From assembly GCA_052034085.1 (NCBI GenBank), contig JBPOJA010000026.1, positions 414 to 64,413 of the forward strand: DNA of 64,000 bases, in the 5' to 3' direction. The notes below the pieces were generated by a model. That model saw only the letters and a program-made list of their open reading frames with translations. It searched no databases and was not told the DNA's origin. Positions 36,442 through 53,680 of the stretch are shown here, in pieces. Numbering within the stretch: the first letter of the stretch is position 1; each line of letters opens with the position of its first letter. Both the position numbers and the translations under genes were made by a program. Origin of the DNA: Bacillota bacterium. Lineage in GTDB: Bacteria; Bacillota; Clostridia; Peptostreptococcales; Anaerovoracaceae.

Positions 36442-36469
36442 ATTATAACAATTTTAGGTGCATGTGTAA
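36442..36469 (-). promoter_or_regulatory. Sigma-A promoter of the 4-gene cluster
   Basis: The minus strand reads TTACAC-N16-TATAAT with an extended-10 TG (TGtTATAAT). It lies about 110 nt upstream of the Yip1-like start. Confidence 0.6.
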
Positions 36470-36487
36470 ATAAGAAAGTAGCGACTG

Positions 36488-36666
36488 TATGACGGTGGTA
36501 TGTATGACAGGGATGACAGTGGTGACAGTGGGACAGACCTTTTGACATGACAGACATGTATGACAGTGGGACAGACCTTTTGTCATATGACAGTGGGACA
36601 GACCTTTTGACATATGTCAAAAGGTCTGTCCCACTGTCATCATTTTGTCATCTGTCTCATTGTCTT
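36488..36666. repeat. GACAG palindromic element cluster, locus 1 (T/A variant)
   Basis: There are three direct copies of GACAGTGGGACAGACCTTTTG(A/T)CA plus one inverted copy. The last pair forms a 52-bp perfect palindrome at 36588-36639, centred on CATATG. The cluster is flanked by TGACAG/ATGACAG short repeats and begins about 3 nt after the stop at 36669. Confidence 0.9.
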
Positions 36667-36668
36667 CT

Positions 36669-37745
36669 CTACAGTTCGAGCTCCATAAATCTTGCCCCCG
36701 GGATGGGATTGTAGATGTAAGGCTCGATATCATAGAAGCCCAGGCTCTCATATAACTTCTGAGCTTTTTCCATGGTGGCCAGGGTGTCCAGCCTCATGTA
36801 CTTGTAGCCCTTTTTTCTAGCCTCATTTATGATGCGACGTGCAAGCTCGCTGCCGATATCAAGTCCGCCATAGGCATGGTCTACATAGAGCCTCTTCATT
36901 TCACAGATTGAATCCGGCTTCGCAGGATTATTGTCTGGCGGAATTCGACCGGTCGGATTGCTTATGGGACGCAGAGCCACGCAGCCTATTGCCGCAAGTT
37001 CGGCTGTGAATGAGAACTGGCCGTATAAAGAAGCTTCAGCAGGCGCCGGCGCATCTGCGTCAACGACTTGCGCAATTATGATGGCGCCGTCGGGCGAGGC
37101 ATAAGCCCCGGGCAATTCCGCCAGCTCCCGGGCAAAGCCCTGAAACTGCAAATCAATCCCGATATGTTTCTCATATTGTTTGAAAAGACGCCTCAGCTCT
37201 TCCAGCAAGTGCGGATTTTTTTCATCTTCTGCACCCAGCACTTTATATTCAACAACATAATCTCCGGCATAATGCACTTCTTTGGAGAAAAACATAGGGT
37301 CTGCATTTTTCAATTTAAGCAGATCTTCATATGCAAGCAACTTTAAGCCCCTGCTTTCAAGGAAATTTTGTACACCCGACCGGATTATCTCATGCTCCAA
37401 CAGAAAAGGTTCTTCCGAAACAATCAGATTTTGCCCCTTGCTCCCCTTAACGTATTTTAGAAAATCCAGATATGCCAGTTTTTCATCTTCTGAAATGTTT
37501 ACAACCATGTAAAATACATGGTTGCGGTCCGAGAAATCAGCGAACTCCTCCCCTCCAAAATCACCGTCAAAATCGCTCAGGCTCACATAAAAAGCCTTGT
37601 TTTGCGTCCGGTCAAAGTCGCTTAAATCCTCTACTTTCCGGCCGGGGAAAGCCGTTTGCAGTTCATGTTCCCAGTCCGTCATCTTTCCGTTTCCTTGATA
37701 TTTTCCTAAATATTTTTTTGCTGGAATTATTATAACATTTGTCAT
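36669..37745 (-). CDS. GNAT acetyltransferase domain fused to an uncharacterised ~170-aa N-terminal domain
   Basis: The C-terminal half carries GNAT motifs (RLYVDHAYGGLDIGSELARRIINEARKKGYKYMRLDT, LYESLGF). I do not recognise the N-terminal half. Confidence 0.65.
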   Translation of the reverse strand: MTNVIIIPAKKYLGKYQGNGKMTDWEHELQTAFPGRKVEDLSDFDRTQNKAFYVSLSDFDGDFGGEEFADFSDRNHVFYMVVNISEDEKLAYLDFLKYVKGSKGQNLIVSEEPFLLEHEIIRSGVQNFLESRGLKLLAYEDLLKLKNADPMFFSKEVHYAGDYVVEYKVLGAEDEKNPHLLEELRRLFKQYEKHIGIDLQFQGFARELAELPGAYASPDGAIIIAQVVDADAPAPAEASLYGQFSFTAELAAIGCVALRPISNPTGRIPPDNNPAKPDSICEMKRLYVDHAYGGLDIGSELARRIINEARKKGYKYMRLDTLATMEKAQKLYESLGFYDIEPYIYNPIPGARFMELEL

Positions 37746-41978: not shown

Positions 41979-42097
41979 ATATGACAGGGGGACATATGAC
42001 AGGGGGACAGCCCTTTTGACATATGGCATATGACAGGGGCATTCTAACGCCTGATGACAAAAGATGTCAAAAGGGCTGTCCCCCTGTCATCCTGTCA
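41979..42097. repeat. GACAG palindromic element, locus 2 (split arms)
   Basis: GACAGGGGGACAGCCCTTTTGACA at 41998-42021 and its exact inverse at 42065-42088, separated by 43 nt. Flanking ATGACAG/CTGTCAT repeats are present. The element abuts the glyQS TGA. Confidence 0.9.
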
Positions 42098-43501
42098 TCA
42101 AAACTCAAGTTTTTCCTCAATGTAATTTCGGACTTCTGATATTGGCAGGCGAACCTGTTCCATTGTATCACGGTCGCGGACGGTTACTGCCCCGTCGGCT
42201 TCCGTGTCGAAGTCAACAGTTATACAGAAGGGTGTGCCTATCTCATCCTGCCTTCTGTAGCGCTTTCCTATGCTGCCCGGCAGGTCATAATCCACCATGA
42301 AATACCTGGCCAGCTCTTCATGAAGAGCCGATGCCGCCTCGTGCTGCTTCTTGGTAAGCGGCAGTACGGCTGCCTTGAATGGCGCCAGGGCCGGATGGAA
42401 GCGCAGTACAACGCGGGTGTCTTCCTTGCCGTTTACGTCAAGCACGGTCTCCTCGTCGTAAGCATCGCACAGAAAAGCCAGAGTCATCCTGTCCAGGCCA
42501 AGCGACGGTTCGATGCAGTAGGGGATATATTTTTCATTGGTTTCGGGGTCCATATAGGTCATGTCCTGCCCCGAATGCTCCTGATGCTGCTTCAGGTCAA
42601 AGTCTGTCCTGTCAGCTATGCCCCAAAGCTCGCCCCAGCCAAAGGGGAACTTATACTCAAAGTCCGTGGTGGCCGCACTGTAATGGGAAAGCTCTTCCTG
42701 CTCATGATCCCTCAGTCTGATATTTTCCATTCTCATGCCCAGGGAGACAAGCCAGTTTTCACAGAAATCCCTCCAGTATTTGAACCATTCGAGATCTGTA
42801 CCGGGTTTACAGAAAAATTCCAGCTCCATCTGCTCGAATTCCCTTGTTCTGAATGTGAAATTTCCGGGAGTTATTTCGTTTCTGAAGGACTTGCCCACCT
42901 GGCCAATCCCAAAGGGGATCTTTTTTCTGGTGGTTCTGGCAACATTTTTAAAGTTGACGAAAATGCCCTGAGCGGTTTCGGGCCTTAAAAACAGCTCAGC
43001 CTGAGAATCCTCGGTAACACCCTGAAAGGTTTTGAACATAAGGTTGAACTTTCTGATTGCCGTATAATCGTGCTTGCCGCACACGGGACACGGCACCTCC
43101 TGCTCAGTCAGAAAATCCTGCAGTTTTTCGTTGGACCAGCCGTCCACGCTTATATTCATATTTTCTTTGGACTTTATGTAGTCTTCTGCCAACTTGTCGG
43201 CTCTGAACCTGGATTTGCAGCTTTTGCAGTCAATAAGAGGGTCCGAAAAACCTGCCACATGACCTGATGCCACCCAGGTTTTCGGGTTCATCAGAATGGC
43301 CGCATCCAGACCCACATTGTACTTGGATTCCTGAATAAATTTTTTCCACCAGGCTTTTTTTACATTGTTTTTCAGCTCCACTCCCACCGGGCCGTAATCC
43401 CATGTATTGGCCAGGCCACCGTAAATCTCGGATCCGGGAAATACAAAACCCCTGGACTTGGCCAGAGCCACGATCAGGTCCAAAGTAAAATCTTTACTCA
43501 T
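42098..43501 (-). CDS. glyQS: Glycine--tRNA ligase (homodimeric type)
   Basis: 467 aa. The opening [31 protein letters not shown] and the class-II motifs match. Confidence 0.95.
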
Positions 43502-44947: not shown

Positions 44948-45032
44948 TGATGACAGATGACAGGGGGACAGCCCTTTTGACACATGACAAAAGGGCTGTC
45001 CCCCTGTCATCACCTGTCATCACCTGTCATCA
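44948..45032. repeat. GACAG palindromic element, locus 3
   Basis: TGATGACAGATGACAGGGGGACAGCCCTTTTGACACATGACAAAAGGGCTGTCCCCCTGTCATCACCTGTCATCACCTGTCATCA. It fills the whole era-recO spacer and includes the era TGA. Confidence 0.9.
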
Positions 45033-48334: not shown

Positions 48335-48363
48335 ATTATAACTGCTTACTAAAGAATAGGCAA
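48335..48363 (-). promoter_or_regulatory. Putative sigma-A promoter of rpsU
   Basis: The minus strand reads TTGCCT-N17-TATAAT. The -35 abuts the left copy of the IS target duplication. Confidence 0.5.
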
Positions 48364-48391
48364 GCAAATTTATTATAAGATTTACTAATTG
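48363..48391. repeat. Target-site duplication, left copy
   Basis: AGCAAATTTATTATAAGATTTACTAATTG is identical to 49954-49982. The true duplication is 26-29 bp depending on where the IS ends are drawn. Confidence 0.85.
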
Positions 48392-49954
48392 TATGAAGCA
48401 CAAATGATAATGTCACCCTGTAAACGCAAATGAAAATGACACAGTAAAGAATTACAATGGAGCCTGGGAGGTGGTTCCGTTGAGAAAGGTGGCATTAACA
48501 GTGAAAGAAGAATACGTCTATCAACAAATCAAGAATTATGTGCACCAGGGTGGCAATTTTAAGGCTTTGTGTTTAAGATTAGGCTGCAGCGAAAGAACGG
48601 CCCGGCGAAAAATAGCGGGCTACAAAAAAGAAGGTAGAGCTTTCTTCCGCCACAAAAATCATGATAACAAACCAGCTACAACCATATCGGAAGATAAGAG
48701 AAGAGAGTTGATTGAGCTATACAACAAGCTATATTTTGACGCAAACTTTACACATTTTCATCGGCTGCTACAAAGGACTAATTCCGAATTCAGAAATCTC
48801 AGCCTTTCTACCATACGAAACATTATGAAAGAAAATGATATACTCTCGCCCTTAGCCTTTAGAAGCACTAAAAAAGCCCTGAGAATCAAAGACAAGCAGG
48901 AAATAGAAGCAAGTAATCAGGAAGAACCTGTTAAGATAGAAGAACCAACCGTAAGCATTTCTCCTCATCCAAGAAGGGAAAAATCTAAATATGCAGGAGA
49001 ATTAATTTATCAGGATGGATCTGTACATCCCTGGTTTAATGGTGCTTATACAACCCTGCATGCAGCCGTGGATGATGCTACGAGCACATTGGTAGGGGCC
49101 AGATTTGAAGAACAGGAGACTCTAAAAGGCCATTACCATGTCCTTGCTCAAATTCTTAAAAACCATGGTATACTTAACAAGCTTGGTGTTGATGGGCGTA
49201 CTGTATTTGAATACAAAAGAAAGGGCCTGACTTCTTTGGAGGAAGATGCCGCTACTCAATTTGGCTATGCCTGTAAGACTTTAGGCATACAGCTACGATC
49301 CACAACCAGCGCTCAAGCTCAGGGGAAGATTGAAAGACTCTTTGGCACTTTACAATCACGCCTTGTTGTCGAATTACGACTCCAAGGCGTGACCACAATC
49401 GAGCAAGCCAATGAGTTCTTGAAATCATATATCCCCATACATAATCAAGAATTCGCTGCTCCACTTAAATCTATACCATCAGCCTATGAGAAGCAACTAT
49501 CTGATGAGGAAATCAATCTGATTTTGGCTGTAATTTCCAAAAGGACTGTAGATGGTGGTCATTGCATCGCCTACGACAAGCAGCATTACCGCTTTCTTGA
49601 CAGCTATGGAAATCGCATACCCTTGGCTCCAAAGCAGACAGTCTTGGTAATCCGTGCTTTTGATGGCCAATTGTTCGCTTCTTGCAAGGATAGACTCTTT
49701 GCCTTGCAGCAAGTTGCTGACCACAAGAAACATTCTTATGACCTGGATTTTATTACTGAAAAACAAAAGACTCCAAAACCCTATATTCCACCTTTTATGC
49801 ATCCCTGGCGGAAAAATGAATTCGAAGCCTTTGCTAAAGATTATCGATCTTCAAAATATTCCTTTGAAGAGCTTATGTATTCAACCGAAAATATCTACTC
49901 CCTAGAAAACTCATATTTTTGATTTTTGGGTGACATTTTCATTTGTGCTTGACA
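48390..49954 (+). mobile_element. Insertion sequence, ~1.56 kb, ISNCY/IS1202-group-like
   Basis: The terminal inverted repeats are TGTATGAAGCACAAATGATAATGTCACCC and GGGTGACATTTTCATTTGTGCTTGACA, with a 23-bp core and 1 mismatch. It carries a single 483-aa DDE/integrase-core transposase and has perfect long direct repeats on both sides. Confidence 0.85.
48471..49922 (+). CDS. Transposase (N-terminal HTH plus rve/DDE integrase-core domain)
   Basis: 483 aa. It has an N-terminal HTH (LRLGCSERTARRKIAGY) and a DDE core (YQDGSVH..., HAAVDDATS..., GVDGRTVFE). The TTG at 48480 is better spaced from GGGAGG than the GTG at 48471. Confidence 0.85.
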   Translation: MVPLRKVALTVKEEYVYQQIKNYVHQGGNFKALCLRLGCSERTARRKIAGYKKEGRAFFRHKNHDNKPATTISEDKRRELIELYNKLYFDANFTHFHRLLQRTNSEFRNLSLSTIRNIMKENDILSPLAFRSTKKALRIKDKQEIEASNQEEPVKIEEPTVSISPHPRREKSKYAGELIYQDGSVHPWFNGAYTTLHAAVDDATSTLVGARFEEQETLKGHYHVLAQILKNHGILNKLGVDGRTVFEYKRKGLTSLEEDAATQFGYACKTLGIQLRSTTSAQAQGKIERLFGTLQSRLVVELRLQGVTTIEQANEFLKSYIPIHNQEFAAPLKSIPSAYEKQLSDEEINLILAVISKRTVDGGHCIAYDKQHYRFLDSYGNRIPLAPKQTVLVIRAFDGQLFASCKDRLFALQQVADHKKHSYDLDFITEKQKTPKPYIPPFMHPWRKNEFEAFAKDYRSSKYSFEELMYSTENIYSLENSYF

Positions 49955-49982
49955 GCAAATTTATTATAAGATTTACTAATTG
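49954..49982. repeat. Target-site duplication, right copy
   Basis: Identical 29-mer to 48363-48391. Confidence 0.85.
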
Positions 49983-52623: not shown

Positions 52624-53598
52624 TCATTGCTTGAATCTGGCCCCTATGGCACACCATTCTCCTTCTTCCATAATCTTGTCTATAATGAAGCCGGCATCCA
52701 GCAGGCTTTTTACAATTTCGTCCTCTTTCTCAATCAGGATGCCTGAAGATATGAAGACTCCGTTTTCTTTAAGGTTTGGCCTGACCAGTGGGGCAAGCCT
52801 GATAACCAGGTCTGCCATCAGGTTGGCCACAACTATATCCGCCACAAATTCCACACCCTCATTTAGATCGCCTTTGATTATGGTGATTTTTTCTTCCTGG
52901 CCATTTCTTTTTATATTTTCCATGGCAACTGGTATGGCAACCGGATTAATTTCAATACCCAGTACTTCTTGCGCCCCAAGAAGAGCTGCCGCCAGGCTTA
53001 ATATGCCCGAACCGGCTCCAATGTCAAGCACAGCCGGGCCATTCAGCGAACTGCTCTTCTCACCCTGCCCCGGGTTTCCGGCAAAGCCGGCTTTCATGTA
53101 TTCTTCCATGAGTTCAATGCAAAGCCTGCTGGTGGGATGATCGCCGGTTCCAAAAGCCATACCGGGATCCAGATCAATTACCAATTCGCCTGCTGCCGCC
53201 CGGTATTCCTCCCAGCTGGGCCTGACAACTATTTTTTCGGTAATGTGAACCGGTTTGAAATACTCTTTCCATTTATGCTGCCAGTCATCAGAGTCCGCCG
53301 GAGAAATTTCAACTTTTTCAGGCCGGAAAGGCCGTAATGTTTCCAAAGCTTCATCCAGAAGTTCCAGACCTTTTTCGCTGTCTTCCAGATAAAACTCAAT
53401 GCCGGGTTCCATATTCCTGATAGCCTCCACTGAAGGATCAATATAGTCCCAGTCATACTCATTCTTTTTCCGGACAAGTTCATTAAAGGAGCCCGGATCG
53501 TGGATTTCCGATCCTGTTTCGATAGCTTCGAATATAGCTCCCGCCATGTCTTCTAAACTGTTGCTCTTGGCATATACTTTGATTTTTATATAGTTCAT
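52624..53598 (-). CDS. prmA: Ribosomal protein L11 methyltransferase
   Basis: The start is taken at ATG 53598 (MNYIKIKVY...); the ORF-track extension translates the palindromic repeat. The motifs are FGTGDHPTT-like (FGTGDHPTS) and LDIGAGSGILS. Confidence 0.9.
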   Translation of the reverse strand: MNYIKIKVYAKSNSLEDMAGAIFEAIETGSEIHDPGSFNELVRKKNEYDWDYIDPSVEAIRNMEPGIEFYLEDSEKGLELLDEALETLRPFRPEKVEISPADSDDWQHKWKEYFKPVHITEKIVVRPSWEEYRAAAGELVIDLDPGMAFGTGDHPTSRLCIELMEEYMKAGFAGNPGQGEKSSSLNGPAVLDIGAGSGILSLAAALLGAQEVLGIEINPVAIPVAMENIKRNGQEEKITIIKGDLNEGVEFVADIVVANLMADLVIRLAPLVRPNLKENGVFISSGILIEKEDEIVKSLLDAGFIIDKIMEEGEWCAIGARFKQ

Positions 53599-53610
53599 TT
53601 TTTGCCTACT

Positions 53611-53680
53611 GAATGACAGGGAATGACAGGGGGACAGCCCTTTTGACACATGTCAAAAGGGCTGTCCCCCTGTCATGTCA
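53611..53680. repeat. GACAG palindromic element, locus 4
   Basis: GAATGACAGGGAATGACAGGGGGACAGCCCTTTTGACACATGTCAAAAGGGCTGTCCCCCTGTCATGTCATT. It starts directly after the dnaJ TAA and ends 13 nt before the prmA ATG. Confidence 0.9.

Follow-up and report, generated by a model that had tools for sequence, protein, structure and literature searches.

The window analysed here is a stretch of DNA of 64,000 nt (C24:414-64413 of assembly G000; positions without a contig name refer to the window). Locus 1 occupies the whole gap from the stop codon of a GNAT-domain gene to the next promoter, and the genes neighbouring it are all on the minus strand. Its features are listed below, with T6, A14 and T22 denoting the base at that position of the repeat unit.

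36669-37745, minus strand: GNAT-domain gene upstream of locus 1, 358 aa, with a C-terminal match to Pfam Acetyltransf_1; stop codon at 36669-36671
36488-36666: locus 1 as a whole, four full units with degenerate or partial TGACAG-type fragments flanking both sides
36615-36638, minus strand: full unit, inverted relative to the other three; exact GACAGTGGGACAGACCTTTTGACA, variant T6, A14
36589-36612, plus strand: full unit, exact GACAGTGGGACAGACCTTTTGACA, T6, A14; palindrome partner of 36615-36638
36562-36585, plus strand: full unit with one mismatch (GTCA for GACA), T6, A14, T22
36524-36547, plus strand: full unit, the distal direct copy; exact GACAGTGGGACAGACCTTTTGACA, T6, A14
36442-36470, minus strand: sigma-70-like promoter match outside the repeat, TTTACA-17-TATAAT with an upstream TG, 11/12 matches (consensus match only)

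An earlier note on this DNA had counted three direct units and one inverted unit at locus 1, and this arrangement is confirmed, with three exact copies and a fourth that carries one mismatch. The full units span 36524-36638. A minus-strand transcript meets the inverted unit (36615-36638) before the others, and the mismatched unit is a tandem copy with a 27-nt period to the unit at 36589-36612. The palindrome that the note had described as 52 bp at 36588-36639 is indeed perfect, but it is slightly longer, comprising 54 nt at 36587-36640. Its 27-nt arms are 100% complementary with no gap between them, and it consists of two 27-nt units abutted head to head. As DNA, the doublet forms a hairpin of -30 kcal/mol (z -12).

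The repeat block begins 3 nt from the stop codon of the GNAT-domain ORF, the distance that had been claimed for the cluster, but 36641-36666 holds degenerate unit fragments only, with 30 nt separating that stop from the first full unit. On the other side, locus 1 precedes a candidate promoter (36470-36442, minus strand) just past the repeats, which, judged by consensus match only, would serve the downstream four-gene cluster, as had been suggested.

Family matches at ≤3 mismatches number 10 in the window, compared with 0 in 100 dinucleotide shuffles. Three further loci of the family lie in the window, together with an unrelated insertion sequence (IS):

41998-42088: locus 2, inverted doublet of the consensus type whose units are 43 nt apart
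44959-45008: locus 3, tight inverted doublet with a 2-nt centre, between era and recO
53625-53674: locus 4, tight inverted doublet, a perfect palindrome except for its 2-nt centre
~48363-49982: DDE-type IS with inverted repeats TGTATGAAGCACAAATGA...

These three loci use GACAGGGGGACAGCCCTTTTGACA (at 41998/42065, 44959/44985 and 53625/53651), as described before, with GTCA in one arm (44985). Locus 2 separates the gene for pyruvate phosphate dikinase (PPDK) from that for a class II aminoacyl-tRNA synthetase (probably GlyRS). By PPDK similarity, the organism groups with uncultured Clostridia. Locus 3 fills an era-recO spacer of ~100 nt, and the same spacer is 8-10 nt long in most of seven readable same-genus genomes. 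The inverted repeats of the DDE-type IS bear no relation to the family unit.

The repeat family across the genome

The family is not confined to the four loci of the window. A census of the assembly (1.68 Mb, 28 contigs, 96.6% complete) counts 81 units at 42 loci at ≤5 mismatches to the 24-mer, and a reversed-genome control counts 2. Both the unit and the locus counts are lower bounds: 12 contig ends break off within a unit (C1, C2, C4, C10, C15, C17, both ends of C19, C24, both ends of C26, and C27), so the true number of units exceeds 81.

The full unit has a 27-nt consensus, ATGACAGGGGGACAGCCCTTTTGACAT. Its borders are sharp: the T that precedes GACAG and the A at the end vary hardly or not at all, and the information content collapses beyond them. 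The word GACA occurs three times per unit, in the arrangement T-GACA-GGGG-GACA-GCCCTTTT-GACA-T, and the unit contains GGGGACAG; the GTAG / CGTC tag is absent from it. Position 6 is G in 57 units, T in 16 and A in 8, and position 14 is C in 70, G in 5, A in 4 and T in 2. Two states each occur at position 22 (A 55, T 26) and position 2 (A 75, T 6).

Units are found solo, as head-to-head doublets, as spaced doublets and in short tandem arrays. Tight doublets with a 2-nt centre make up 9 of the 21 doublets; these, like the tandem copies with a TAT spacer, are exact abutments of 27-nt units. Predicted folding of the consensus (A22) unit (-2.7 kcal/mol, z -1.1) is no more stable than that of shuffled sequences. 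The T22 variant, to which about a third of units belong, folds alone (-5.7 kcal/mol, z -3), and doublet hairpins reach -30 to -32 kcal/mol.

Partial units accompany the full ones. A 13-nt form, TGACAGNGGGACA followed by a non-G base, occurs at five sites of this genome (C1:44325, C3:29618, C17:16821, C19:68 and C24:42395, the last being window position 41982) and at locus 1 of another strain (L210). Every 13-nt partial unit sits outside and 5' of a full unit, in the same orientation, and 5-nt partial units are likewise confined to the outer side of full units. Comparable stuttered 5' parts, ending just past GGGGACGG, are seen in the sister families of two related genomes, G040 and G003. The 13-nt partial units could originate from slippage between GACA words, or they could be an enzyme footprint.

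The units lie close behind genes. At 28 gene ends beside clusters, with gene positions taken from crude ORF calls, the distance from the stop codon to the start of the nearest full unit is -2 to 30 nt (median ~8 nt). The TGA stop codon is itself the start of a TGACAG (partial) unit in four cases and stands directly before one in five more. The gene upstream of the transposase gene considered below ends in ...MTGGQPF*, coded wholly by a unit (C2:11811-11832). Further genes with a stop codon that comes from, or is fused to, a TGACAG unit are found at C16:4114, C1:44325 and C3:29618 and at window positions 42098 and 45030. Units also cause spurious N-terminal extensions of ORFs, for example in recO and in ORF 52624-53649.

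Three clusters have unusual layouts. At C12:30979-31104, four direct consensus units are separated by spacers that alternate between 9 and 12 nt, giving a 69-nt higher-order period. A CRISPR-like nature of this array was considered and rejected, as its spacers are only 9-12 nt. Adjoining it are ~760 nt without a long ORF, which hold a tRNA gene. Two inverted doublets with wide spacing, one at C26:4256-4363 and one a little beyond the window at C24:66900-67032, enclose apparent native intrinsic terminators (a G+C-rich hairpin, then a T-run), as if units had landed on either side of a pre-existing hairpin.

The family is a main source of fragmentation of this assembly, through the 12 contig ends, and it also produced one artefactual contig of 67 kb. 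Over its full 67,176 nt this contig, C18, equals its reverse complement exactly, with a GTCAGT-variant doublet at the centre (C18:33564-33613). The assembly has almost certainly folded back at the hairpin here, so that ~33.6 kb are counted twice in the genome size. The repeats thus matter for genome-size estimates, and they matter for annotation through the spurious N-terminal extensions and the stop codons that they supply to several genes.

Scanning the genome collection for the exact 24-mer gave no match, and the family was not found in 10 same-genus genomes or in 30 further family- or order-level genomes. Judged by these sequence comparisons, the repeat family is species-specific.

The Y1 transposase gene and its flanking repeats

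What might mobilise these units? A REP-associated tyrosine transposase (RAYT), which the earlier note had named as the enzyme to look for, is represented by one RAYT-class Y1 gene flanked by family units. This 261-aa ORF on the minus strand (C2:10901-11686) is the only Y1_Tnp (PF01797) match in the 96.6%-complete genome. It is bracketed by two units per side, with the two sides in inverted orientation. In gene orientation, the upstream units (C2:11832-11755) are at C2:11755 and 11809, and the downstream units (C2:10896-10838), at C2:10838 and 10873, have the opposite orientation and lie 4 nt past the transposase stop.

The best model for the protein is NCBIfam REP_Tyr_transpos, at 77.9 bits just below the cut-off of 80; the IS200 model scores 17 bits. 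A PDB search with the single transposase sequence gave no match, and a profile of 28 homologues gave one only, E. coli TnpA_REP (4ER8, E 4.6e-9). The AlphaFold model (pLDDT 86.9) also has 4ER8 as its best fold match (target TM-score 0.75); the TnpA structures of ISDra2 and IS608 come next. In the 28-homologue alignment, neither the HUH histidines nor the Tyr of RYIxxNP vary. A C-terminal block, GLSIRQIERxTGI, is conserved in the closer relatives and is modelled as helices. The C-terminal tail of some homologues is matched by Pfam HTH_23, HTH_28 and HTH_38; the protein itself has only an HTH_19 match (E 0.05).

Related inverted repeats, with the pattern CAGGGGAC[AG]G...TTTTG as their basis, border homologous genes in other phyla and in the same genus:

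Same-genus genome G010: GTGACAGGGGGACGGGGTT
Same-genus genome G007: AGACAGGGGACGGTTCT
Syntrophomonadaceae MAG: GGGGACGGGGTTGTTGACAC
Atribacteria MAGs: CAGGGGACGGTCCTTTG

Amplified sister families occur in the relatives G040, G029 and G003, with ~58, 18 and 15 occurrences, respectively, of a 13-mer. The sister families of G040, G029, G003 and G010 (loci L190-L209) have the core GACAGGGGGACGG... in common and differ in their 3' halves, and each is paired with its own transposase homologue. They repeat the convergent doublets, the outer partial repeats and, in places, the mirrored variants: both arms carry GCTTTT at L198, both carry TCAC at L205, and the arms are unlike at L206. In G003 and G029, the ends of the sister families are self-complementary, and the A22 form of the unit may therefore be derived.

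Formation of the doublets by internal deletion from the present gene-bearing element was considered and rejected, because the ends of that element differ at position 22 (A versus T) and 17 of the 21 doublets have the same base there in both arms.

Mirrored substitutions at locus 1

The two changes that set locus 1 apart, G to T and C to A, are both matched in the inverted arm, as the earlier note had observed; they correspond to T6 and A14. The note took the pair to define a variant subfamily. This is true of the G-to-T change, which is found in 16 units at 8 loci, but not of the C-to-A change, which occurs four times in the genome, always at locus 1 (in the three direct units and the inverted one). 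It further held that such a pattern is expected either from selection on a hairpin or from copying of a palindromic unit. The genome-wide data support this pair of options, and at locus 1 they favour copying.

All 21 inverted neighbour pairs are convergent and none is divergent. The arms are identical in 15 of the 21, compared with 18% of between-locus pairs (permutation p < 1e-4), and direct neighbours are also more similar than chance (p = 6e-4). The C18 doublet is one of the 21 pairs, and its removal leaves the picture unchanged. At least six non-consensus states are mirrored somewhere in the genome (A6, T6, T2, G14T15, T14T15 and A14), and six doublets contain unmirrored private changes. 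That mirrored variants have arisen independently at least six times is also compatible with selection or with repair templated by the hairpin. An intra-unit pair between G6 and C14, with T6 and A14 as compensatory changes, was considered and rejected, since no covariation is seen between positions 6 and 14 in other variants and the variant unit does not fold.

Comparison of strains adds a dimension in time. Look-ups of exact products in other assemblies (the GNAT protein, Era, the DUF4342 protein, the 384-aa protein by locus 4 and the transposase) found none, the cytidine-deaminase contig ended before reaching locus 3, and none of the 10 same-genus genomes has the GNAT-domain gene. An identical copy of the 183-aa protein encoded downstream of locus 1 is present in two other assemblies. 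One of these provides a contig of a conspecific strain that is 98.2-99.3% identical over 3 kb. Its locus 1 (L210) consists of the doublet only, with T6 and A14 in both arms, and then a 13-nt partial unit; one arm has a private T-to-C change. Relative to it, the window strain has 59 additional nt (~36523-36581), which are two extra full units. The second assembly breaks off at the palindrome and has an identical junction, and since the junction is alike in two independent assemblies, the shorter allele of locus 1 is real. The presence of T6 and A14 on both arms of the conspecific doublet indicates that the mirrored state is older than the split of the strains, and that the direct copies reflect a recent local gain or loss.

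Unit copying is therefore better supported than hairpin selection as the explanation of the mirrored changes at locus 1, because the direct copies share T6 and A14 and copy number varies between strains. Three direct copies cannot all pair with one inverted arm, which makes local copying the simpler account. Taken as a whole, locus 1 is very probably one site of a genome-wide family of 27-nt units that are the terminal repeats of a single RAYT-class (TIRYT-type) Y1 transposase, with mirrored changes that result from local copying of units.

The other option is that the mirrored substitutions are compensatory changes under selection for a functional hairpin, such as an RNA 3'-end stabiliser or terminator, a DNA cruciform or a protein-binding site, and that the doublet is kept for the benefit of the host. 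The uniform convergence of the 21 doublets and the identical arms of 15 of them agree with this, as do the very stable stems in both RNA and DNA (z -8 to -12), the position of the elements directly past stop codons and the compensatory changes reported for REPINs (PMC3116915). Moreover, the sole private arm change of the other strain produces a G-U pair on the transcribed strand. We nevertheless regard selection as an unlikely source of the pattern. The direct copies carry T6 and A14 even though one inverted arm could not pair with all of them, A14 is found at no other locus, variants are common to direct neighbours across the genome, and copy number differs between strains. The stem lacks a U-tract on the transcribed strand, and the absence of the family from 40 related genomes implies that no conserved host function is tied to the unit sequence.

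A host effect of the hairpin at locus 1 is a separate matter. The minus-strand RNA of the locus has a predicted fold of -80.5 kcal/mol (z -8.2), including a 25-bp perfect stem that is not followed by a U-tract. The only T-rich tail at the locus is on the plus strand, and the flanking genes are on the minus strand. Given the lack of a U-tract on the transcribed strand, the structure is not a canonical intrinsic terminator, and an Rfam search returned only sub-threshold generic hairpin (miRNA-type) matches. It is more likely that the element would act as a barrier to 3'-exonucleases or as a processing site, or hinder ribosomes at the nearby stop codon, than that it is a classical intrinsic terminator. 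E. coli REPs protect mRNA 3' ends, and Liang, Rudd and Deutscher reportedly found in 2015 that REPs <~15 nt from a stop codon can stall terminating ribosomes.

It is highly improbable that the palindromes are MITEs of a DDE-type insertion sequence and owe nothing to the Y1 enzyme. Their shape is alike, with two terminal inverted repeats and little or no interior, and a DDE-type IS is present in the window (~48363-49982), but the inverted repeats of that IS are unrelated to the unit, and units flank the Y1 gene both here and in distant relatives. At 20 doublets, no target-site duplication of ≥4 nt was found; 16 have no direct repeat, and the others have one of 1-3 nt. The lack of target duplications is as expected of a Y1 enzyme and speaks against a DDE-type MITE. 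Least probable of all is that the units serve a host regulator as operators or iteron-like binding sites (a regulon signal), or that they are an assembly artefact: short direct arrays such as the four units at C12:30979-31104 and the artefactual perfect palindrome of contig C18 may recall one or the other, but the sites follow stop codons and are not at promoters, the family is species-specific, two independent assemblies from other samples show the locus 1 doublet with the same flanks, and doublets within contigs have unique flanks that differ on each side.

Under the favoured explanation of transposase-borne units and local copying, the Y1 enzyme would act in trans to mobilise or amplify units by way of single-stranded DNA, and would leave no target duplication. 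Indirect evidence for such mobility comes only from the copy-number polymorphism between strains and from the contrast of filled and empty era-recO spacers. Units that do not flank the transposase gene would be non-autonomous elements that settled in tiny spacers just 3' of stop codons. The G-to-T change may be an older subfamily marker that spread to 8 loci, and it and the C-to-A change would have become mirrored at locus 1 through local duplication and inversion of whole 27-nt units. Selection on the hairpin would be unnecessary for the locus 1 pattern, although it may add to it.

Relation to known repeat systems

The closest known counterparts are TIRYTs and TIRtrons, RAYT-like enzymes flanked by terminal inverted repeats that share GGGGWSAS, with repeats that also occur as dimers and clusters (PMC3733652; Di Nocera, De Gregorio & Rocco 2013). 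TIRYT proteins fall mostly in the HTH-bearing TnpA-Y1 subclass 2.1 of Quentin et al. 2018 (PMC6006769). The resemblance extends to a Y1/HUH protein that is longer than classical RAYTs and has a putative C-terminal helix-turn-helix region, to a gene flanked by terminal inverted repeats with GGGGWSAS (here GGGGACAG) and to repeats elsewhere in the genome as dimers and clusters. By its GGGGWSAS motif, putative C-terminal HTH tail and repeat organisation, the system probably belongs to the TIRYT type. Two differences stand out. The family is large for the class, with ~81 units in 1.7 Mb, and its repeats flank the gene, whereas automatic and manual searches by Quentin et al. found no REP-like sequences near subclass 2.1 genes (PMC6006769). 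Since about a third of its units (T22) fold alone, the family falls between the descriptions of terminal repeats and of REPs.

Similarities with REPs, BIMEs and REPINs (4ER8; Bertels & Rainey 2011, PMC3116915) are also extensive. In both cases a single-copy RAYT-class enzyme has its own repeats on either side; these lie outside genes, for the most part downstream of them, and have a lineage-specific sequence; and inverted doublets form long hairpins, with changes matched on both arms, and tandem higher-order clusters. Unlike REPs and REPINs, the family here has no GTAG/CGTC tag and its majority unit is not a palindrome. Where the known systems have two hairpins with a spacer between them, many doublets here form a perfect palindrome around a 2-nt centre; the enzyme has a putative additional HTH tail, and the host is a Clostridia bacterium with a small genome rather than a proteobacterium.

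With the TnpA proteins of IS200/IS605 elements (IS608, ISDra2), the enzyme shares the catalytic fold, the HUH motif, the single catalytic tyrosine and the lack of target-site duplications. In contrast to these elements, it matches the IS200 models weakly (17 bits), its gene is single-copy, and its gene-less 27-nt ends have been amplified; the ends are inverted repeats, not two different subterminal hairpins. Hairpin recognition is the known mode of RAYT and IS200/IS605 enzymes. It cannot simply be assumed here, because the A22 majority unit does not fold alone.

The element at locus 1 is thus a well-supported instance of an already-known bacterial repeat type, and what is particular to this locus is the evidence for an origin of mirrored variants by unit copying, together with a strain-level difference in copy number. 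To our knowledge, REP/RAYT-type systems have been characterised almost only in Proteobacteria, and we know of no experiment that has shown a mechanism for the HTH-bearing TIRYT branch. The genome described here would be a clean case from that branch: it has a single gene with a single repeat family, the borders of the unit are clear, and one locus varies between strains. We tentatively raise the idea, with considerable doubt, that the Y1 enzyme might cut and rejoin immediately 3' of the GACA words in the unit. Should this be true, the 27-nt abutments, the 5-nt and 13-nt outer partial units and the strain-variable copy number would all be products of strand transfer. Perfect palindromes would then be born symmetric, by joining beside an existing unit and not by way of compensatory evolution, and there would be a concrete route for the origin of REP doublets and clusters.
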